DNA of 64,000 nt. Source: an uncultured Nitrospirota bacterium (lineage in GTDB: Bacteria > Nitrospirota > Nitrospiria > 2-01-FULL-66-17). Each line of letters begins with the position of its first letter. Position 1 is the stretch's first letter. The position numbers and the translations under genes are program-made. Below the pieces are notes generated by a model. It had not been told where the DNA came from. It saw only the letters and a program-made list of their open reading frames with translations, and ran no database searches. Shown in pieces: positions 4,440-29,578 of the stretch. The stretch is taken from positions 285,510 through 349,509 of the forward strand of contig CAZMYW010000027.1 in assembly GCA_964570625.1 (NCBI GenBank), read 5' to 3'.

Positions 4440-6392
4440 TTAGAAGTTGGCTTGCAAGCCGATGCGCGGTGTGAATCCGGCGCTGGGAAATCCGATGGCT
4501 TCTTCATAGTCGGCATCGAACACGTTATCGACCGCCAGGACATATCGCCACGACGGCCGTGCCGTTTTCCAGGTCATCGCCAGATTGACCCGTGTGTAGG
4601 GAGCTAAATAGCGGTCGCCGGTCGGGATCGACGAGTCCAGAACTCGTCCCACATACAGAACGTCTACATTGACGGAGACGGAGGGAGACGGCTGCCATCC
4701 AACCACGACCCCTCCGCGCCACTCGGGACGGTTTCGGAGCTCTTCTTCGGTGCCCACAATGTCCATCCCCAGGTGGGTGAGATGCGAAGACACGTGAAGG
4801 CGCCCGGTCGCCTGTACACCGACCTCCATCTCCACGCCGTTCCCAACGACCTTCGACCGATTGACCAATTGCGGTGGCGGACCCTCTTGCAGATCGATCA
4901 TGCCGTACGACACCGTGGAAAAATATGCGGCGCGGAGCGTCACCCGCTCACCCCACAGGAGCTGCGTCACGGCCACCTCTCCGCTGTGGCTTCGTTCCGG
5001 CAGCAGATTCGGATTGCCCACGATCGGGTGCCCCAAAGCGAAAAAACTGGGCAATTTGAACCCCTCGCCCCAACTGACCCGAAGGGTCGTGTCAGTGGAC
5101 ACGATCCTGTACGAGAACGCCGAACGAACGCTGACCTCGGCGTCGAACTCACTCGGGATATCCAGCCGCAGGCCTGCGTGGGCGCGCAACCCTTCGGACA
5201 CGGTGTATCGACCTTCGATAAACGGCGCCCAGGCTTGACGGTCCATCTCGAAATCCGCCGGAACAACCGTTCCCCCAAAAGACAGCCCGCCTCGGCTGTT
5301 GCCCCTTTCAGATTGAGCTTCGATTCCCAGCCCCACGGCCAACCGTTCGGTGGGGGTCGACCGGCGAAGGAGCGTCACCACCTGGCGGCGGTACCGACTG
5401 TCGGAAAAGTTGGGCGGAATTCCGGCCGGATCACGCACTCCGGGCGCGACGCCAGGTGAATCAGTCTGATCCTGCCGATCGTAGTATTGGATGGTCAGAT
5501 CGGGAATCCAGGTGGAGGGATCCGCAGCAGACAACTCGATCCCCGCGATCATCTCGGTGGAACCCCCCTCCTCGACCTCGCGCAACACGGCGAAAGACGG
5601 TCCACCGCTGTCCTCCGGGAACGTTTCGCGGTGGCCATCCGTGTAGCTCACCGTGGAGCGGAGTCCAATCCACCGGGTCACCCGGCCGCCGAAACTTCCT
5701 CGAATCGTTTGGTTGACCAACGCGCTGCCCTCCGTCGCGGTTCCGCTGTCGAAATAGGAACCGCTCAACGAATACTCCGCGTCGCCAGAAACCCCCTGGG
5801 CCCGCAAGACCGCGTGACGGTACCCAGCGGGTCCACCGGACACCTCCACGCCTCTGACTGCCTCCGACGCGCCGCGAGGGGTCACGATATTCACGACGCC
5901 CGCCAGTGCATCCGAGCCGTAGATCGCGGACATCGGTCCCCGCACGATCTCGACCCGCTCCACGTTCGCGACATCCAGCGTCGACAGGTCGAACGATCCG
6001 CCGCGGCTATTGGTGGGATCGTTCACCTTCACCCCGTCAATCAGCACAACGGTATAGTTGGGATCGGCGCCTCGAAGGTACAGGGAGCTCACCGCTCCGC
6101 CGCCGGCCTGATCGACGTGTAGCCCCGGAACTTGTCGTAACAGGTCGGGGACATTCCGTGCCTGCTGCGCGGCGATCTGCTCTTTGGTGATCACGGTCAC
6201 GCTGGCTCCGCTGTCCTCGATCGTCGAAGGGAGCACCGTTCCGGTCACCAGGACGGGCTCCAGCGTCACTCGTATCGGGCCTGGCTCATGTTCCGTTTGG
6301 GCCTCCGCTAGAATATCCGGTCCGAGCCACAGGCCGAGGCATGCGGTAAGGGCACCGACGAGACGGACCGATCGAATTTCTCCGCGTCCCAT
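4440..6392 (-). CDS. TonB-dependent outer-membrane receptor
   Basis: Plug-domain motifs (DLLRQVPGLHV, SLYLRGADPNYTVVLIDGVKVNDP, VERVEIVRGPMSAIYGSDALAGVVNIVT) and a C-terminal aromatic residue (..LQANF). The signal peptide begins at the internal Met, so the start was chosen at 6392; the ORF extends to 6464. Confidence 0.85.
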   Translation of the reverse strand: MGRGEIRSVRLVGALTACLGLWLGPDILAEAQTEHEPGPIRVTLEPVLVTGTVLPSTIEDSGASVTVITKEQIAAQQARNVPDLLRQVPGLHVDQAGGGAVSSLYLRGADPNYTVVLIDGVKVNDPTNSRGGSFDLSTLDVANVERVEIVRGPMSAIYGSDALAGVVNIVTPRGASEAVRGVEVSGGPAGYRHAVLRAQGVSGDAEYSLSGSYFDSGTATEGSALVNQTIRGSFGGRVTRWIGLRSTVSYTDGHRETFPEDSGGPSFAVLREVEEGGSTEMIAGIELSAADPSTWIPDLTIQYYDRQDQTDSPGVAPGVRDPAGIPPNFSDSRYRRQVVTLLRRSTPTERLAVGLGIEAQSERGNSRGGLSFGGTVVPADFEMDRQAWAPFIEGRYTVSEGLRAHAGLRLDIPSEFDAEVSVRSAFSYRIVSTDTTLRVSWGEGFKLPSFFALGHPIVGNPNLLPERSHSGEVAVTQLLWGERVTLRAAYFSTVSYGMIDLQEGPPPQLVNRSKVVGNGVEMEVGVQATGRLHVSSHLTHLGMDIVGTEEELRNRPEWRGGVVVGWQPSPSVSVNVDVLYVGRVLDSSIPTGDRYLAPYTRVNLAMTWKTARPSWRYVLAVDNVFDADYEEAIGFPSAGFTPRIGLQANF

Positions 6393-22176: not shown

Positions 22177-22599
22177 CTACCGGACGATCAGCGTGCCCTT
22201 CATGCCGTTGTCATGATGAGAGACTGGGGCTTCCGCGTCGCAGCGAAACGAAAACTCCCCGGCCTTCTTCGGCGTAAACCTGATGATCACCGTGGCGCCC
22301 GGCAAGACTTCCAATTCCTCGACACCATGAACCAGCGCAATCGCGCCCTTGGTCTCCAAATCCACCTTGATGTCCGCCAGCACGTCGGACACGAATTCGT
22401 GCAACACCTTGCCAGAATTCACCAACTTCAGCTCAACCGGTTTTCCGCTTTGAATCTCGATCTGAGCGGGTTCGAACTTGTATTCGGTCATTCGAATCGT
22501 CACGGTTTGCGGCGCCGGCGGAATAGTCCGTTCATCCGCCACGGCGTGGACCGTCAACAATCCCATCGTCAGCATACCGGCCAATATCACTGCTCTCAT
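22177..22599 (-). CDS. cupredoxin-like (type-1 blue copper) periplasmic protein
   Basis: Signal peptide MRAVILAGMLTMGLLTVHA. Candidate Cu ligands are H (HEF), C (FRCD), H (SHHD) and M (NGM), in a beta-sandwich-sized 140-aa product. Start trimmed to the internal Met, which is ATGA-coupled to the upstream gene. Confidence 0.65.
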   Translation of the reverse strand: MRAVILAGMLTMGLLTVHAVADERTIPPAPQTVTIRMTEYKFEPAQIEIQSGKPVELKLVNSGKVLHEFVSDVLADIKVDLETKGAIALVHGVEELEVLPGATVIIRFTPKKAGEFSFRCDAEAPVSHHDNGMKGTLIVR

Positions 22600-23090
22600 T
22601 GTTTCCTCCCCTTCCACCACATGTCGTACAACGGCACCCCGATCAACACCACGGCAGTCCCGGTCATCACCACCCAGCTCGCGATTTGGAGCATGGCAAA
22701 CCCGGGGGCCACGAACCGAATCAGCCACGGAGACGCCAAGTCACTGAACGTCGCCGCAAACGCCAGCACGATCACGGTTCGTTTCAACGGAAGACCGATC
22801 GATGTCGCGACGAACAGGTGCGTCAACACCAACAGGACGATCCCTTCGATAAACGCATGGAAGTGTAGTTCCTCCAGCATCTGGCCCACCGGCCTCGGCA
22901 ACAGGTCTTCATCCCCCGATCCACGATAATGCTCGACGACCTGTTGATACTGCGGCCCCACCCTGGTGAAGGCGATCGCCACCAAACTCACGTAGCCCAC
23001 CGCGGCGAACACCAAGAAAGCCGTGTAAATCGCCTTGAGCTCCGGCGGGCTGAACCGGATCTGGAACCCCTGACGAGAAAAATCTTTCAT
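22596..23090 (-). CDS. 4-TM integral membrane protein, unknown family, His-rich second helix
   Basis: Four predicted helices and LHFHAFIEGIVLLVLTHLF. ATGA overlaps join it to both neighbours. Confidence 0.55.
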   Translation of the reverse strand: MKDFSRQGFQIRFSPPELKAIYTAFLVFAAVGYVSLVAIAFTRVGPQYQQVVEHYRGSGDEDLLPRPVGQMLEELHFHAFIEGIVLLVLTHLFVATSIGLPLKRTVIVLAFAATFSDLASPWLIRFVAPGFAMLQIASWVVMTGTAVVLIGVPLYDMWWKGRKQ

Positions 23091-24631
23091 GACCCGTCTC
23101 CGCCGGCCCCGTACACCGTCGCCGTCAGGGCCAACGCCGTCTTCACCGCCTGCGCGGTGGAGCGGGAGGACAACGTCGCGCCGCTAATCCCGTGGATGTC
23201 GCGGCCGAGGCGTAACGGCGCCGCCAGTGTCTTGCCGGTAAACTGGGCGAGAAATCGCTTGGAACGGATCTCCGAACCCTGCGACTCGCGATAGATCAAC
23301 ACCTGCACGCCCCGCACCACACCCTCGGGAGCGACCGCGACCATAAACGTGATCGGCTGCTCCTTCCCGATAACGTCCACCACCGTCGCATAACCCAACG
23401 CTCCTTCGGCGCCGGTACCGACCCAAAAGGTGACCTCCGACTCGCGAACTCGCCTCCCGATCAGGGATTCGATCCGCGCCCGGTGGCCTTCCGTGAGTGA
23501 CACGGTTTCCTGCGTAAATTGCTCGGCCTCGGGGATCAAAGCCTTGAGCGCTTCTTCACGGCTCATGTACACCACGGCCTGGCCCAACGGTGGACGCACC
23601 ATCATCGCCATCACCGCAGCGACCATTCCGACCAGTATCCGGCGCCTAGCGAGCATATGCGGGGGACAAGGCTCCACCACCAACTCGCTCCATCCGGACG
23701 TCTGGCTGGTGACCACCCGTCCCGTATCGTCCGCGCTCGCAATCACCCCGTCGAGTCCCTGTTGGCCCAACAGATCCACCCCAGCGCGCGGACCCAACAC
23801 AAAGGCCGCCGTGGACAACGCATCGGCATCGAGCGCGGTCCTCGCCACCACCGACGCACTCGCCGCGCGGTGGGCCGGACGCCCTGTTCTGGGATCCAGA
23901 ATGTGGCCGTATCGGATCCCACGGATGATCACGGCCTGTTGGTCGTCTCCCGATGTGGCCAATGCGGCATCGCTCAAGCACACCACGCCCAAGACGCGAT
24001 TCGGATCCCGCGGGTGCCTGATGCCCACACGCCACCCGTCCTCACCAGGCGGCTTCCCGATCGCGTACGCCACGCTGCCGAAATCCACGAGCGCCGACGA
24101 CACGCCCGCTGCGATCAACAACCGGACGACTCGGTCGATGGTATAGCCCTTGCCCATCGCGCCGAACTCGAGTTCCACACAGGAATCTCGGTAGGCCACC
24201 GTCCCGGCGTGCGGATCCACGGCAATCATGGAAAATCCCACTCCAGCCAACAGTCCTTCCAACTCGTCCCCGGCAAGCGGCCGCAACGGCACGCCGCCGT
24301 ATCGGTCGTCACGAATCCGCCACGAGCGCGTGAGCGGCGAGACCGTGGCATCCACGGTCCCGCCGCTGATGACCGAAAACCGACGCGCCGCTTCAATCAA
24401 CCCGAGCAGCTCGGCACCGACCACGACCGGTCCGCGCCAGGCCTCGCGATTGACCCGCGACATCTCGCTGGTCGGATCAAACACGCTCAGCAGGCGTTCG
24501 ATCCGCACGGCCTCGGCAAACGCAGCGCGGAGCAATTCGTTCCCCGGTTCAGGGTCAGTGCCAGGAAGCGTGATATCGAGCACGCTCCCCATACACGGCT
24601 GGCTCCCTCTGGTGATTGGCCGGGCCATCAA
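23087..24631 (-). CDS. FAD:protein FMN transferase (ApbE) fused via a TM segment to an FMN-binding (NqrC/RnfG/NosR-type) domain
   Basis: ApbE-like N-terminal region of about 330 aa, then the hydrophobic RRRILVGMVAAVMAMMV segment. The C-terminal domain carries the flavinylation motif GISGATLSSRS. Confidence 0.75.
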   Translation of the reverse strand: MMARPITRGSQPCMGSVLDITLPGTDPEPGNELLRAAFAEAVRIERLLSVFDPTSEMSRVNREAWRGPVVVGAELLGLIEAARRFSVISGGTVDATVSPLTRSWRIRDDRYGGVPLRPLAGDELEGLLAGVGFSMIAVDPHAGTVAYRDSCVELEFGAMGKGYTIDRVVRLLIAAGVSSALVDFGSVAYAIGKPPGEDGWRVGIRHPRDPNRVLGVVCLSDAALATSGDDQQAVIIRGIRYGHILDPRTGRPAHRAASASVVARTALDADALSTAAFVLGPRAGVDLLGQQGLDGVIASADDTGRVVTSQTSGWSELVVEPCPPHMLARRRILVGMVAAVMAMMVRPPLGQAVVYMSREEALKALIPEAEQFTQETVSLTEGHRARIESLIGRRVRESEVTFWVGTGAEGALGYATVVDVIGKEQPITFMVAVAPEGVVRGVQVLIYRESQGSEIRSKRFLAQFTGKTLAAPLRLGRDIHGISGATLSSRSTAQAVKTALALTATVYGAGGDGS

Positions 24632-24635
24632 TCGG

Positions 24636-25832
24636 TCAATGGAATTGATACCCTACGCCTAGATTGAACCGGGTGCCGTCGTTGTCGGCCCCGTCTTCCC
24701 AGCTCTCCAGATCGGCCTTCACCGCAACATCCGGAATCGGGTAATAGGCCAAACCTGCGGTCATCACCTGCCGTTCGTTGGCCGGATTGGCGGTGAAGCC
24801 GGTCGGCATCGACTTCTGCGTGTCGAAATCTTCATACCGGATGAACGCGACCACGGACTGGTTCGTATCGGGAGCCAGTAGTTTGAGGAAATCATAAGCG
24901 GCTTCCAGGTACCACCCCATCATCTCCTCGCCGACGTCCTCCCCTGTAGCCGTGCTAATCTCAGCCGCACTATCCACGCTGATCGACGCCACCACACCGC
25001 GCAAATCCAGGCCGGCAAGACGCAGCCTCGCGTCCGCCTCCAGAATCCCCACCCCTGCATCGCCCAGCGCCGAGTTCTTCGTGGTATTGGCGCCGCCCTG
25101 GTAGACCGAGAGCCCGAGGTCCACACCCGGCAAGCCGACGTACTCCAATCGGCCCACGATCGCCAGCTCGTCCGAGGGCTGCTCCGCCACGTGTCCCCGC
25201 CCGCCGCGAATCCCGTTCGACGCGGTAAAGCCTTCGGCATTCAACCCGGACACGAGGTACACGCGGTACTTGAGGCCGGCCGGAACCGAGCCGAAGAACC
25301 CAACGCCGCCCTCTTGCCACGTAGTCGGAATGATGGTGCGCTGCACGTACGGTCGCTCCACGCTGTAAAAGAGCGGGGGCTCATGGAATTCGTTCAGCGG
25401 TCCCACCGGCATCAGCATACTGCCGGTCCGCACGTTGAAAGCCGGCGTGATGAGGAAATCCAGGTACGCAAACTCGAGCTCGATCTCGGTGGCCGCGTGC
25501 TCGAAATCGACCTCGGTGTGGACGCTGATGCGGTCGTTAAACTGATAACTCACCCCCCACACCATCCGGTGCAAATCCATGATCGCCGGGGCGTCGTCAT
25601 CGGGAACGCCCGATCCCTCAGGGCTATTGAAATGCAGCTCGCCATACCCGTGGAAACTCACCTTCCCCGTTCCGGATCCCCCGTGCGAGTCGGCCCCGCC
25701 GCCCCCTAGTTGATCCAGGCGCGACTCGATGTGGTCGAGCCGCTCGGTCACCGACTCATCCGCCAGCACGCTCATTGCCGCCGGCCCGACAAGCCATAAA
25801 CAAACCCCCAGCGTGGCCATAGTTCTCTTCAT
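24636..25832 (-). CDS. outer-membrane porin (beta-barrel, phosphate-selective-porin-like)
   Basis: Signal peptide and an amphipathic beta-strand pattern with aromatic girdle residues. C-terminus is ..GVGYQFH. GGAGGA RBS. Confidence 0.65.
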   Translation of the reverse strand: MKRTMATLGVCLWLVGPAAMSVLADESVTERLDHIESRLDQLGGGGADSHGGSGTGKVSFHGYGELHFNSPEGSGVPDDDAPAIMDLHRMVWGVSYQFNDRISVHTEVDFEHAATEIELEFAYLDFLITPAFNVRTGSMLMPVGPLNEFHEPPLFYSVERPYVQRTIIPTTWQEGGVGFFGSVPAGLKYRVYLVSGLNAEGFTASNGIRGGRGHVAEQPSDELAIVGRLEYVGLPGVDLGLSVYQGGANTTKNSALGDAGVGILEADARLRLAGLDLRGVVASISVDSAAEISTATGEDVGEEMMGWYLEAAYDFLKLLAPDTNQSVVAFIRYEDFDTQKSMPTGFTANPANERQVMTAGLAYYPIPDVAVKADLESWEDGADNDGTRFNLGVGYQFH

Positions 25833-25920
25833 TGCTCCTCCTTCGTGGGTGAATGGTGATTCGACTGACTGGGCGCTGGGTGCTCCAAGACCGCTGGCCT
25901 CTGTGGATTCTACCGGTCGT

Positions 25921-26085
25921 CTAACGCGAGGAAACGTTGGGATCGCGCGGAGGCGGAACGGTTCCGGCGATGCGATTCTGGGGAATGAGGACGGTGCGCT
26001 TGCAGCGACGGCACTTCAGCTCCAGGACATCGCCTCTCCACCGGGCCATGAGGCCACCGCACAAGCAGCGGACTTCGGACGCCAC
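25921..26085 (-). CDS. small Com-like zinc-ribbon protein
   Basis: VRCLCGGLMARWRGDVLELKCRRCKRTVLI resembles phage Mu Com (..IRCPHCNKLL..ELKCPRCK..). Start placed at the GTG with a GGAAG RBS. The track ORF start at 26148 abuts the operator and leaves no RBS. Confidence 0.45.
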   Translation of the reverse strand: MASEVRCLCGGLMARWRGDVLELKCRRCKRTVLIPQNRIAGTVPPPRDPNVSSR

Positions 26086-26150
26086 TTTTTCTTCCGCTCG
26101 GCGGGGAGTCACGAGGCTCGATTTCGGTGTCTGTTCACGCTCACCCAATT

Positions 26151-26218
26151 GATAATGGAATTAGATTTCAATTTCATTAAATGGGCGTCATAGTAGTAGG
26201 ATCGGAACAGCTTGTCAA
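26151..26218 (-). promoter_or_regulatory. promoter/operator module 1: TTGACA, 17 nt, TACTAT, followed by a Fur-box-like AT-rich palindrome (GATAATGGAATTAGATTTCAATTTCATTA)
   Basis: Read on the minus strand: -35 TTGACA (26213-26218), -10 TACTAT (26190-26195), then the palindromic AT-rich site 26151-26180 immediately upstream of the Com-like/porin operon. About 80 bp is homologous to module 2. Confidence 0.5.
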
Positions 26219-26279: not shown

Positions 26280-26753
26280 CTACTCTTTCTTGATCTGTTG
26301 ACTGAGGTAGTTTTCAACCCCGACCCGCTTGATCGCGTCGAGTTGGGTTTCGATCCACTCGATGTGCTCCTCTTCACCCTGGACCATCCGCTCCAATTTT
26401 CCGCGGGTGTTGTAGTCCCCCACTTTCACGCAATGGGTGATCGCGTCGGTCAGGACACCCACCGCCTCCTGTTCGAGCCGCAGATCCAAGTTCAACTGTT
26501 CCAGGACGGTTTCGCCGATCTGCACTTGGCCCAGTCTCTGGAGGTTGGGAATCCCGTCGAGGAAGAGAATATGCTCGATGAGTTCGTGGGCGTCTTTCAT
26601 CTCGTCGAAGCTGTGTTTCTTGATCTTTTCGTACAAGCGCTCGAATCCCCAGTGACGACACATTTCCGCGTGCACGAAATATTGATTGATCGCAGTGAGC
26701 TCGTTGGTCAACACGCGGTTCAGCGAATCAACGACGCCCTTTTTGGCTTTCAT
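26280..26753 (-). CDS. bfr: bacterioferritin
   Basis: MKAKKGVVDSLNRVLTNELTAINQYFVHAEM and the EExH ferroxidase residues. 157 aa from the internal Met. Confidence 0.9.
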   Translation of the reverse strand: MKAKKGVVDSLNRVLTNELTAINQYFVHAEMCRHWGFERLYEKIKKHSFDEMKDAHELIEHILFLDGIPNLQRLGQVQIGETVLEQLNLDLRLEQEAVGVLTDAITHCVKVGDYNTRGKLERMVQGEEEHIEWIETQLDAIKRVGVENYLSQQIKKE

Positions 26754-26856
26754 GGTACCTCCCGGACGATGTGGTGACGGGGCTCTAGAACGTGAACGAG
26801 TGGCACCGTATCTCACCGGACCGGGGGATGTCAACAAGGTGCGAGGAACGCAGGGG

Positions 26857-27078
26857 TTACGAGCGGCTGGAGGTGCCGGCTGGAGCCATTCGCTTGGTTT
26901 TGAACTGTTCGGTTCGGGCAAGCGCGGCGAGATCCGCAATCCGCGTCACGCAACGTCCACAACAGTCGTCCCGGTCGATGCCCAGTTCCTCGGCCAACGC
27001 TTTGGGGCTGACGATCCCTGCGCGACCCAAGCTGCGGACATGGGAATCGGTGATGCCTTTACATAAACAGATATACAT
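26857..27078 (-). CDS. bfd: bacterioferritin-associated ferredoxin (2Fe-2S)
   Basis: MYICLCKGITD ... CCGRC cysteine pattern. 73 aa. Confidence 0.8.
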   Translation of the reverse strand: MYICLCKGITDSHVRSLGRAGIVSPKALAEELGIDRDDCCGRCVTRIADLAALARTEQFKTKRMAPAGTSSRS

Positions 27079-27096
27079 ATGCGACCGCCCTCACCG

Positions 27097-27161
27097 TTCA
27101 ATATTGTTCGATATTGAATTGCTTTTTCAAAATTCTAGCTGATCGGACGGGCACGTGTCAA
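27097..27161 (-). promoter_or_regulatory. bfd-proximal promoter (TTGACA, 18 nt, TAGAAT) with a 22-bp palindrome TTCAATATTGTTCGATATTGAA in the short leader
   Basis: -35 at 27156-27161 and -10 at 27132-27137 on the minus strand. The near-perfect inverted repeat at 27097-27118 lies between the predicted TSS and the bfd ATG (27078). Confidence 0.45.
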
Positions 27162-27350
27162 GCAGCGAGTTTCGGATGGGGTATCGACCCCGCAGGGCCT
27201 CCCCGAGGAGAGCGAAAAAAAAGAAACGCCCGGAATGAATGCATTCCGGGCGTTGGGCAAGTAAGCCTCGAGCCTCTGCAGTGCTGTCGTTCGTCGCGGA
27301 GCCGTATCCGCGTTAGGCGATCGTCACGCTCTCAGTCGCCACATACTCGG

Positions 27351-27425
27351 ACAATGAAATTGGAATTAGATTTCATTTTCATTTACAATGCGCGCATCGT
27401 AGCCGAACGGGAAATGACTTGTCAA
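27351..27425 (-). promoter_or_regulatory. promoter/operator module 2: TTGACA, 18 nt, TACGAT, plus Fur-box-like palindrome AATGAAATTGGAATTAGATTTCATT
   Basis: Shares the 14-mer GGAATTAGATTTCA, the TTGACA element and the spacing with module 1. It sits between the fur stop and bfd. Confidence 0.45.
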
Positions 27426-27437
27426 GGGGAAACTGGA

Positions 27438-27944
27438 CTAGTGGCTGTGGGGTTGCGGCGGTTGCGGGGGGCGAGCCTGCTGCTGGCTTTTGTCCGCTCG
27501 GACGGTCTCGCAGGCCTTGCAGAACCCATACAACTCGAGCTTGTGGAACGTGATCCGAAAATCGTGCTGACGGGCCACGTTTTCCTGAAACTCCTCGATT
27601 TGAAAGTTCTCGAACTCGATGATCCGTCCGCAGTGGGTGCAGATCAGATGATCGTGGTGCGATTTCCAGGCCACGTTGTCGTAGATGGTTTTCCCCTTGC
27701 CGAAGTGCCGCTCTTGGGCGAGTTCCCACTGGCACAGCAGCTTGAGGGTCCGATACACGGTAATAATCCCGATCGAGGGATCTTTCTTGGCGACCTGGTT
27801 GTAGAGATCTTCGACCGTAATGTGGTCCTGGTTCAGAAAGAGCTGCGCGATCAACTCACGCTGATGCGTCAACTTCAGGCCGTGTTCGCGCAGTCGCGCG
27901 TGGAGTAGGTCTCGAGATCGAGATTTGGGGGCGGCTTTCACCAT
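27438..27944 (-). CDS. fur: ferric uptake regulator family transcriptional repressor
   Basis: LKLTHQRELIAQLF DNA-binding helix, HHDHLICTHCG..FCKAC metal sites and a Q/P-rich C-tail. Start trimmed to MVKAAPKS. Confidence 0.85.
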   Translation of the reverse strand: MVKAAPKSRSRDLLHARLREHGLKLTHQRELIAQLFLNQDHITVEDLYNQVAKKDPSIGIITVYRTLKLLCQWELAQERHFGKGKTIYDNVAWKSHHDHLICTHCGRIIEFENFQIEEFQENVARQHDFRITFHKLELYGFCKACETVRADKSQQQARPPQPPQPHSH

Positions 27945-28327: not shown

Positions 28328-29578
28328 TTACCGCTGACTGCGCGTCGTGCCGATCACGGCTTCCGCGACTTGCCGCATCGGCCGGCGGTTGTTCATACTC
28401 TGACGCTGCAGCACGCGAAAGGCCTCTTCCTCGGTCAGCCGGCGCTCCCGCATCAAGATGCCTTTGGCTTTCTCCACCAGTTTCCGCAGCTCCAACGCGT
28501 CGTGCATTTGCGCGGTCTCCTGCATCAAACGCGTGTTCTCGATCGCCACCGCCGCCTGATTGGCGATCGCCTGCAGCAACTCGATTTCGTCCGTCAAAAA
28601 CACGTGCGGCTCGGCAGTGTAGCTGTTGATCACGCCGACGGCTCGGTCTTTGTACAACATCGGCACTGACAGGAGAGAACGGAGTCCTTCTCGACGCGCC
28701 AGATCGGGATACACGTACCCCGGATCGGCCGTCACGTCGCAGACAGCGATCGGGCGTTTCTCCAGCACCGCCCGCCCGCTCACCGCCTGACCGATCTTGA
28801 GCGGCGGCTTGCTCCGGTACGCGTCGGACAGGCTCTGCGTGGCGGCGATACGCAGTTCCCCTCGCTCGTCGTCCGCGAGCATGATCGAGCAGATCGCGGA
28901 CCCCATGGTTCGAGCCGTGATCGTCACGATGAGGTGCAGCATCTCTTCGAGATACCGCGTCGATGTGATCGTGGTGCTTACCTGCAGGAGCGTCTCGAGC
29001 TGGAGCGTCTTACGGCGCATGCCTTCGTACAAACTGGCGTTTTCGATCGCCCCGCCCACCTGATGGCCGATCGCGGCAAGGAGCGCGATCTGCGAGACGG
29101 AATGGCGATGGGGATCCCGGTGCTGCACGTTGATCACGCCGATGACCTGGTCTTTGGCGATCACCGGCACGGACAAGAATGCCTGATAGCGGTCCTCGGG
29201 CAAGTTATGAAAACACTTGAACCGCGGGTCCTCGCTGGCGTGCTGGTCGATCGCCACGGGCGTACGCTCACGCGCGACCCATCCGGTGATCCCCTCCCCT
29301 ATCTCTAATTTGATTCGACCGATCAGTCGCGGATGCGGCTGTTTGGAGGCCCTCAGCACCAGTTCCTGATGGTTGTCATCGACGAGGTACAGAAACACGG
29401 CATCGCCAGCGGTCACCTCGACGACCAAGTCGATGATCTGTCGGAGCACGGCTTCCTGATCGAGCGTCCCACTGATGGTTTCGCTGATCCGTCGCAAGAC
29501 GTCCAATTCGCGGTTGGTCTGGCGCACCGCGTTGACGGCGGGGCGGGGTCGGCGGGACCGCGTGGTTATCGCAGCCAT
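28328..29578 (-). CDS. GAF-GAF-ANTAR RNA-binding antitermination regulator
   Basis: Two GAF domains and a C-terminal ANTAR domain (LRKLVEKAKGILMRERRLTEEEAFRVLQRQSMNNRRPMRQVAEAVI). Confidence 0.85.
   Translation of the reverse strand: MAAITTRSRRPRPAVNAVRQTNRELDVLRRISETISGTLDQEAVLRQIIDLVVEVTAGDAVFLYLVDDNHQELVLRASKQPHPRLIGRIKLEIGEGITGWVARERTPVAIDQHASEDPRFKCFHNLPEDRYQAFLSVPVIAKDQVIGVINVQHRDPHRHSVSQIALLAAIGHQVGGAIENASLYEGMRRKTLQLETLLQVSTTITSTRYLEEMLHLIVTITARTMGSAICSIMLADDERGELRIAATQSLSDAYRSKPPLKIGQAVSGRAVLEKRPIAVCDVTADPGYVYPDLARREGLRSLLSVPMLYKDRAVGVINSYTAEPHVFLTDEIELLQAIANQAAVAIENTRLMQETAQMHDALELRKLVEKAKGILMRERRLTEEEAFRVLQRQSMNNRRPMRQVAEAVIGTTRSQR

Follow-up and report, generated by a model that had tools for sequence, protein, structure and literature searches.

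An ApbE–FMN_bind fusion of Nitrospirota with a conserved internal twin-arginine linker: possible flavinylation ahead of export

Covalent attachment of flavin mononucleotide (FMN) by ApbE-type transferases is regarded as a mainly extracytosolic reaction, so that flavin adenine dinucleotide (FAD) is needed outside the cytoplasm. Extracytosolic flavinylation otherwise depends on FAD export, and a supply route has been established only for Firmicutes, where dedicated exporters exist. A truncated ApbE flavinylates NqrC in the cytosol of Escherichia coli, natural cytosolic ApbE proteins are known, and for the trypanosomatid glycosomal fumarate reductase FRDg (Trypanosoma brucei), which has its own N-terminal ApbE domain, experiments showed that flavinylation in cis exceeds that in trans at least 5-fold in efficiency. 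Cofactor loading in the cytoplasm is familiar from the route of twin-arginine translocation (Tat). The redox enzyme maturation proteins (REMPs) of Tat substrates, such as TorD, DmsD and NapD, are cytoplasmic, dedicated to one substrate and act beside the signal peptide so that cofactor insertion precedes export; they are free-standing chaperones whose binding to the signal is non-covalent, and they catalyse no cofactor attachment. Tat signals share the consensus S-R-R-x-F-L-K (PMC7317946), and dual Sec/Tat membrane proteins, i.e. actinobacterial Rieske proteins, the molybdenum cofactor/haem protein Sco3746, polyferredoxins and YkuE-type proteins (Tooke et al. 2017), carry a C-terminal cofactor domain that must fold before transport. 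Here we describe a gene within a 64,000-nucleotide stretch of contig CAZMYW010000027.1 from an uncultured Nitrospirota bacterium (the whole stretch is called the window below) which encodes an ApbE transferase and an FMN_bind acceptor domain in one polypeptide, joined by a linker with an invariant pair of arginines.

This arrangement is read as cytoplasmic cis-flavinylation followed by Tat export of the folded flavodomain, within an iron-linked envelope redox module, an interpretation that we regard as probable with appreciable reservation. Its parts are known, namely the ApbE and FMN_bind families, cytosolic ApbE, the trypanosomatid fusion, internal Tat signals of polytopic proteins and iron-linked flavinylation clusters. 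The combination of ApbE, internal twin arginines (RR) and FMN_bind does not appear in the flavinylation census or its follow-up, in a 2025 review of ApbE, in Tat reviews up to 2026 or in the literature found by targeted searches. Entry to the census depended on a predicted N-terminal signal peptide or lipobox (Meheust et al. 2021); the fusion would not qualify by its own sequence, and the filter misses the class described here.

The fusion gene and its two domains

The original prediction had described a 514-aa open reading frame (ORF) that holds enzyme and acceptor in one polypeptide, the latter with the motif GISGATLSS, and each of these statements was borne out: the ORF is present on the minus strand as described (Table 1), Pfam finds both domains above curated cutoffs, and the motif is in place with SGAT at residues 483-486. 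The TTG that opens the maximal ORF has an in-frame TAG a few codons upstream, which leaves no room for an N-terminal signal peptide. The probable true start is the ATG of Met14, which has a Shine–Dalgarno (SD)-like sequence (AGAGGGAG) 10 nt upstream and is also used by an identical public protein (P0001, 100% identity, 501 aa) and by an independent gene call. With this start practically no residue precedes the ApbE domain.

The N-terminal half matches PF02424 (E 1.6e-67; 228 bits, cutoff 25.6; profile positions 1-263 of 266) and aligns in phmmer to solved FMN transferases (7esa, E 1.5e-35). It carries GxxxKG..D, TSG, Y-x-H-I-L-D-P and D-x-L-S-T, all of which align with 7esa. In 55 family members G144, K148, G149, Y150, D153, T213, S214, H230, D257, S260 and T261 are invariant; these residues sit in the motifs GxxxKGYxxD, TSG and D-x-x-S-T and at the His of Y-x-H-I-L-D-P, which argues that the domain is under selection as an enzyme. 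Judged by profile and motifs, the fused ApbE is an intact flavin-transferase domain. An N-terminal lipoprotein or Sec signal, typical of the family albeit not universal, is absent, the domain starting at residue 14 or, from Met14, at residue 1. Across 110 fusions of this kind the distance from the N-terminus to the ApbE domain has a median of 10 residues and is only 0-3 residues in 52, and the longer leaders are polar; ApbE proteins of loci in which the two genes are split have clearly hydrophobic leaders (best 10-mer at 2.6-3.4 on the Kyte–Doolittle scale). At the extreme end of the ApbE half, right before the variable tether, a T-x-G-W motif was observed (residues 311-314, about 23690..23701; T in 97, G in 82 and W in 100 of 110), which could be an interface or docking element.

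Domain boundaries had been suggested as a check, and Pfam confirms that the C-terminal part is FMN_bind (PF04205, E 2.5e-9; 38.1 bits, cutoff 22; profile positions 1-76 of 77). The acceptor motif D-x-x-(S/T)-G-A-(S/T) is read as D477-IHGI-S483-G-A-T486; throughout the family its G and A never vary, and the acceptor position holds T or S in every member. Membership in the RnfG/NqrC families was considered and rejected (34 bits, cutoffs 102-230), and the fusion has no rnf, nqr or nos genes as neighbours. In an AlphaFold2 (AF2) model both domains are confident (mean predicted local distance difference test, pLDDT, 89.7), the tether between them has a pLDDT of 51-65, and a helix begins at the RR pair within this low-confidence stretch.

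A homologue search over 5.8 billion clustered proteins gave 1163 matches at E ≤ 1e-5, the best 120 of which are listed. About 115 of these 120 have the order ApbE-then-FMN_bind, at 35-100% identity (forward fusions in the following), and were drawn from NCBI, JGI, ENA and Logan assemblies covering many samples and assemblers. All named forward fusions among the matches listed belong to Nitrospirota (Nitrospiria, Nitrospira, Candidatus Manganitrophus), and the named relatives share 60-65% identity with the window protein. The original prediction had allowed that two neighbouring genes were joined by a frameshift, and the same would apply to a stop codon lost in assembly; the rarity of the architecture and the separation of the two genes in other phyla would be in keeping with such an artefact. 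It is ruled out by more than 110 independent clusters of identical architecture spanning that range of identity and by the identical window sequence recovered in an independent Logan assembly, so that we give this explanation practically no weight. The fusion architecture is solid.

The last few of the 120 listed matches have the reverse order, FMN_bind-then-ApbE, behind ordinary N-terminal signal peptides. Such reverse fusions (Sec signal, FMN_bind, ApbE; about 500-550 aa) number 32 among the proteins classified (P0116-P0120, P0255, P0263, P0266, P0270 and others). The earlier view that fusions of this kind are uncommon was too broad in their regard, but it stands for the ApbE-first order with an internal RR signal, which is restricted to Nitrospirota among the sequences seen.

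The internal twin-arginine linker and the route of export

ApbE and FMN_bind are linked by a tether of about 45 residues that holds the RR pair, a short hydrophobic (h-) region and a c-region with basic residues and proline which ends in G-x-A. By hydropathy, the fusion has a single strongly hydrophobic segment (ILVGMVAAVMAMMV, residues 332-345) and, apart from a buried beta/alpha stretch of ApbE, no other segment resembling a transmembrane (TM) helix. The stretch is only about 14 residues long and is laid out like a signal peptide: ARRR, the h-region, RPPLGQA and then VVY. Of the hydrophobic helix first proposed to join the domains, the segment itself was thus found, whereas a plain TM helix fits the n/h/c layout less well than a Tat-type signal or signal-anchor does. 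The arginines stand at residues 329-330 of 514, behind the ApbE domain and not at the N-terminus of a precursor.

Alignment of the 110 forward fusions showed that R329 and R330 are invariant (110/110), and this conservation is as solid as the architecture. Position +2 is F in 88/110, +3 is L in 92/110 and -1 is S or T in 62/110; the pair is followed by an uncharged h-region of about 14 residues, by P, R or N at 346 and, in 77/110, by Ala at 352 (G-x-A). The residue at -1 of the putative cleavage site is A, G or S in 98 of 116 sequences, and a signal-peptidase site after A352 is possible. The family consensus SRRRFLA fits that of Tat signals, and the TIGR01409 model (TAT_signal_seq) matches the internal segments of four out of ten relatives at 23.5-30.9 bits (cutoff 16.7) as well as 9/55 full-length family members.

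The C-terminal half alone was used as query in a full-library HMMER search, which returned forward fusions, stand-alone proteins of about 190 aa and reverse fusions. The pattern RR-x-Phi-Phi precedes FMN_bind in 116/116 forward fusions versus 1/32 reverse fusions and 3/94 stand-alone proteins (Fisher p = 2.8e-65). Non-forward relatives with the pattern therefore amount to 4/126, and one of the three stand-alone positives is a fragment of a forward fusion. Lys or Arg in the c-region, a "Sec-avoidance" feature, is likewise enriched in forward fusions (68% versus 44%, p = 2.6e-4). Directly after the internal signal the acceptor module opens with a conserved mature start, VVY(M/L)(S/T)xEEAL; stand-alone and reverse-order homologues have an identical "YLTxEEAL", there behind signal peptides of the Sec type. 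Overall, the linker looks like a conserved internal Tat signal or signal-anchor.

The topology originally proposed, with ApbE in the cytoplasm and FMN_bind outside, is favoured by the lack of an N-terminal signal, by the RRR on the N-terminal side of the hydrophobic segment and by the leaders of FMN_bind homologues in split loci. A wholly cytoplasmic or peripheral protein, in which the helix does not span the membrane and the flavodomain lies on the cytoplasmic face, would agree with the shortness of the helix (14-17 residues) and has precedent in cytoplasmic ApbE–substrate pairs and fusions (cytoplasmic ApbE/fumarate-reductase systems). We consider it improbable, since the FMN_bind homologues of the split loci examined and most of the stand-alone ones listed carry signal-peptide-like leaders, the partners are envelope proteins (a porin-like protein and a cupredoxin with a signal peptide), and it is hard to see what a conserved n/h/c layout ending in G-x-A would do for a protein of the cytoplasm.

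How a cytoplasmic ApbE would reach an exported acceptor, the question raised at the outset, was an apt one, and the conserved internal twin-arginine linker fits flavinylation before export. We put forward the following hypotheses on export route, signal cleavage and physiological role. With FAD and Mg2+ from the cytoplasm, the ApbE domain would transfer FMN onto T486 in cis, which would make delivery of FAD to the periplasm unnecessary. In the form of a hairpin or loop, the internal RR signal would then engage TatBC, and the folded, flavinylated domain would cross the inner membrane while ApbE stays on the cytoplasmic side. There are precedents for every step, namely ApbE activity in the cytosol, the cis-flavinylation of FRDg, internal Tat signals that export the C-terminal cofactor domains of Rieske-type proteins, and Tat itself, which has been proposed for the export of nitrite oxidoreductase in Nitrospira and Nitrospina. 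The signal may either be kept as an N-in/C-out anchor, like that of RnfG and NqrC, or be cut after A352, which would release a soluble periplasmic flavoprotein. Outside, the flavodomain may work with a membrane protein of family PF27139, a blue-copper cupredoxin and the porin-like protein, all encoded next to it, as an iron-regulated periplasmic electron-transfer module that serves iron acquisition or iron redox chemistry. This functional assignment is weaker than that of the export mechanism.

Several observations weigh against the proposal of cis-flavinylation and Tat export. The signal of the window protein reads A-RRR-I-L-V, with RR and hydrophobic residues at +2 and +3 but sub-consensus at +2; the window's own segment is not matched by TIGR01409, and all matches to the Pfam model TAT_signal (PF10518) were below cutoff, with none for the window segment. 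The lower h-region hydrophobicity that is a hallmark of Tat signals was not seen (2.38 versus 2.45-2.48 in Sec-type homologues). Tat dependence is inferred from the sequence alone, and Tat genes were not located in the source genome. The natural internal Tat signals described all come after TM helices inserted by Sec, and none after a soluble domain of some 310 residues. The AF2 model does not place the acceptor domain on ApbE with confidence (predicted template modelling score, pTM, 0.66), a result that fits a flexible tether and is evidence neither for nor against docking. Concerning the module, the PF27139 partner has neither structural nor literature annotation, and Fur boxes in the window, scored as matches out of 19 to the E. 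coli consensus, are weak: 12/19 at the operon promoter (26145..26181) and 13/19 upstream of bfd (27110..27128).

Some of these observations would suit a type II signal-anchor that is inserted co-translationally by Sec and the signal recognition particle. Its arginines would merely act as positive-inside residues and FMN_bind would cross unfolded, to be flavinylated in the periplasm by another ApbE encoded elsewhere, with the fused ApbE being vestigial or serving some other cytoplasmic substrate. Besides the Sec-like hydrophobicity, the sub-consensus motif and the missing Tat hidden Markov model match, the NCBIfam RnfG models speak for such an anchor, as they align from the hydrophobic segment onward, just as with the Sec-inserted anchor of RnfG. 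We consider it rather unlikely. A topogenic patch would tolerate Lys and variable spacing, whereas both arginines are invariant with F/L at +2/+3, and the RR motif is essentially absent from Sec-exported homologues. Moreover, the active-site motifs of ApbE are invariant, the only genetically linked substrate of the enzyme is the fused FMN_bind domain, and no second ApbE or FMN_bind gene is present within the window.

Another way to obtain a Tat precursor would be internal initiation at Met326 (ATG 23656), three codons before the RR pair, whose product MLARRRILVG... would resemble a normal Tat precursor and leave the full-length protein minor or irrelevant. However, Met326 is not conserved, the family having L, A, G, S or P at this column, and a conserved internal start codon was therefore rejected. 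There is no SD-like sequence before Met326 either, and in more than 110 sequences the frame runs through the junction between the domains without a stop. We judge internal initiation very improbable; a separate precursor would in any case still need a cytoplasmic ApbE, i.e. the same mechanism in trans. Export of the acceptor domain, as part of the full-length fusion, through the internal RR signal is the reading retained below.

Operon partners, split modules and regulation

The fusion is part of a conserved same-strand module in the order porin-like protein, fusion, PF27139 protein, cupredoxin. Start and stop codons overlap as ATGA between fusion and PF27139 gene (23087..23090) and again between PF27139 and cupredoxin genes (22596..22599), which indicates translational coupling of the three. 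The cupredoxin gene follows the module in the window and in Nitrospira-like relatives, and the same gene is found in L003 and L004. Most forward-fusion loci have the porin-like gene as the immediate upstream neighbour of the fusion. Its product has only sub-threshold matches, to Porin_4, OMP_b-brl and Porin_O_P, and the assignment as a porin is accordingly soft; a flavinylated outer-membrane protein of the DUF3570 type was rejected for the upstream gene, as Pfam gave no match beyond these weak porin-like ones. At least one reverse fusion (L009) is also preceded by a porin-like gene, and no PF27139 partner was seen on its short contig of 4.7 kb.

The PF27139 protein (Aq_1264_TM; AF2 pLDDT 89) has invariant H76, H78, H91, E73, Y22, Y55 and W139, and also carries K103, D117 and W122. 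The element E73-x-x-H76-F-H78 is placed at the end of TM2 that is predicted to face the periplasm; H91 sits some 13 residues further in, near the cytoplasmic end. This pattern suggests haem or metal binding, either in a trans-membrane electron conduit or in an ion path, and the protein is a candidate for a new component of flavinylation systems that sits in the membrane and binds haem or metal. Fold searches returned nothing specific, and the family is not mentioned in the literature searched.

A scan of contigs with a generic ApbE pattern revealed modules that are split into separate genes of variable order, in at least Acidobacteriota, Spirochaetia, Deltaproteobacteria, Dadabacteria and Nitrospinota. 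In the split loci examined, the FMN_bind protein and ApbE each have a Sec-type N-terminal signal. The RR signal is thus confined to proteins whose ApbE no longer has an export signal. Given these Sec-type signals and the shared mature start, the Nitrospirota fusion is most simply read as a derived state in which the ApbE signal was lost, ApbE moved ahead of its substrate and the signal of the substrate became an RR signal.

An iron-homeostasis block, fur-bfd-bfr (26280..27944), lies directly upstream of the operon, with a GAF-GAF-ANTAR regulator beyond it; relatives, Candidatus Manganitrophus-like ones among them, have the module flanked by fur and a ferric-type ABC transporter. This adjacency points to an iron-linked periplasmic redox module. 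The two weak Fur-box sites of the window have GATA(A/T)TG(A/G)AATT in common. At the operon promoters of relatives Fur boxes reach 15-17/19 (L003 4819-4837, L005 2080-2104, L010 5492-5510), and in L011 a 16/19 site lies farther upstream (4840-4864); as background, only 4 of 78 loci reach 15.

Between the operon promoter and the porin gene, a small conserved zinc-ribbon ORF of 75 aa (25921..26148, minus strand; containing VRCLCGGLMARWRGDVLELKCRRCKRTVLIP) was observed, with homologues in the same place in Candidatus Manganitrophus-like loci (L001 4408-4635, L008 4381-4572). Matches to Zn_ribbon_4 in Pfam are insignificant; the ORF resembles Com-type translational regulators of phage Mu. In addition, five loci share a GC-rich leader element, GGCCAG(A/C)G(A/G)TC-N8-12-CC(A/C)G(A/C)GCC, about 40-70 nt upstream of the porin start. 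An Rfam search of the operon leader gave no match. The element could be a regulatory site, either RNA or protein-binding, and is possibly a target of the small zinc-ribbon protein.

Table 1. Coordinates of the fusion gene, its parts and the neighbouring features (window positions)
Feature	Position	Strand	Remarks
Fusion gene, maximal ORF	23087..24631	minus	514 aa from TTG
Probable true start of the fusion gene	ATG 24592	minus	Met14; 501-aa product
ApbE (FAD:protein FMN transferase) domain, residues 14-294	23750..24592	minus	without signal peptide or lipobox
Putative internal Tat-type signal, residues 326-352 (MLARRRILVGMVAAVMAMMVRPPLGQA)	23576..23656	minus	RR conservation, n/h/c layout
Twin arginines R329-R330	23642..23647	minus	
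h-region of the internal signal	23597..23638	minus	
Exported acceptor module (predicted), residues 353-514	23090..23575	minus	
FMN_bind domain, residues 422-500	23132..23368	minus	PF04205
Flavinylation motif S483-G484-A485-T486	23174..23185	minus	
T486, predicted FMN phosphoester acceptor	23174..23176	minus	
4-TM membrane protein, PF27139 (Aq_1264_TM)	22596..23090	minus	164 aa; start overlaps fusion stop (ATGA)
Type-1 cupredoxin, predicted periplasmic	22177..22599	minus	140 aa from ATG 22599; signal peptide; Cupredoxin_1 E 6.5e-15
Porin-like outer-membrane protein	24636..25832	minus	398 aa; signal peptide; C-terminal ...GYQFH; first large operon gene
GC-rich leader element (candidate)	25872..25899	minus	also L001 ~4735-4765, L005 ~2160-2190, L008 ~4690-4725, L011 ~5610-5640
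AT-rich operator-like stretch after promoter	26145..26181	minus	
Sigma70-like promoter, TTGACA-17 nt-TACTAT	26190..26218	minus	upstream of operon; read from sequence
bfr	26280..26753	minus	
bfd	26857..27078	minus	
fur	27438..27944	minus	168 aa
GAF-GAF-ANTAR regulator	28328..29578		beyond fur block

Comparison with described systems

Taken together, the data may describe a new route in which a tethered maturase flavinylates its substrate in cis in the cytoplasm, the folded product is exported through an RR signal, periplasmic FAD becomes dispensable and the product feeds a new iron-regulated porin/PF27139/cupredoxin system. On this combined claim our judgement is evenly divided. If true, the locus would represent a natural experiment in which the enzyme was moved to the cytoplasm and fused to its substrate, and a Sec-type signal was swapped for a Tat-type one. 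It would show that flavinylation is able to come before export and that a domain with covalently bound flavin is acceptable cargo for Tat. The fused ApbE would then be a covalently tethered, possibly single-turnover maturase, from which signal peptidase may free the product, with the enzyme left behind. The linker would be the first natural Tat signal behind a soluble cytoplasmic domain, and it offers the Tat field a testable internal signal behind a large soluble domain, with bearing on the loop or hairpin model of insertion. The porin/PF27139/cupredoxin set would be a new redox system that occurs, split or fused, in at least six phyla; as a conserved four-gene module with a His-rich membrane protein, it is a candidate for a new redox system, related to iron, in the envelope of nitrifiers and manganese oxidisers (Nitrospira, Candidatus Manganitrophus).

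Compared with iron-assimilation flavinylation clusters (PepSY-like/FoxB, MsrQ-like and P19/FTR1; Meheust et al. 2021), the locus has in common an extracytosolic flavoprotein, a dedicated ApbE, a small membrane partner and iron-related neighbours. It differs in that the membrane partner, PF27139, belongs to none of the five described classes and in that the porin-like protein is a constant partner. With the periplasmic ApbE systems (NqrC, RnfG, NosR/NosX, PplA/FmnB) it shares the enzyme family, the acceptor domain, the motif and a flavodomain that would lie outside the cytoplasm. The canonical enzyme of these systems is a Sec-exported lipoprotein in need of periplasmic FAD, whereas the fused enzyme is without an export signal. 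The latter trait is shared with the cytoplasmic ApbE of Klebsiella pneumoniae, which is likewise bacterial and without a signal peptide and flavinylates a soluble fumarate reductase; the K. pneumoniae enzyme is, however, a separate protein, and its substrate is cytoplasmic and not exported afterwards.

Like FRDg, the fusion has ApbE and the acceptor motif on one polypeptide. FRDg, conversely, is eukaryotic, its acceptor is a short N-terminal motif before ApbE rather than an FMN_bind domain after it, and enzyme and substrate share one compartment with no export signal between them. In the dual Sec/Tat membrane proteins an internal RR directly precedes the last hydrophobic segment, basic residues follow the h-region and a cofactor domain forms the C-terminus, all of which applies to the fusion as well. 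There, the signal comes after two to four TM helices that are inserted by Sec and keep it at the membrane; the fusion has no preceding TM helix, and upstream of its signal stands a soluble ApbE domain of about 310 residues, globular in the AF2 model, which would be the maturase of the exported domain. Unlike the REMPs, finally, this maturase is an enzyme, covalently joined on the N-terminal side of the signal.

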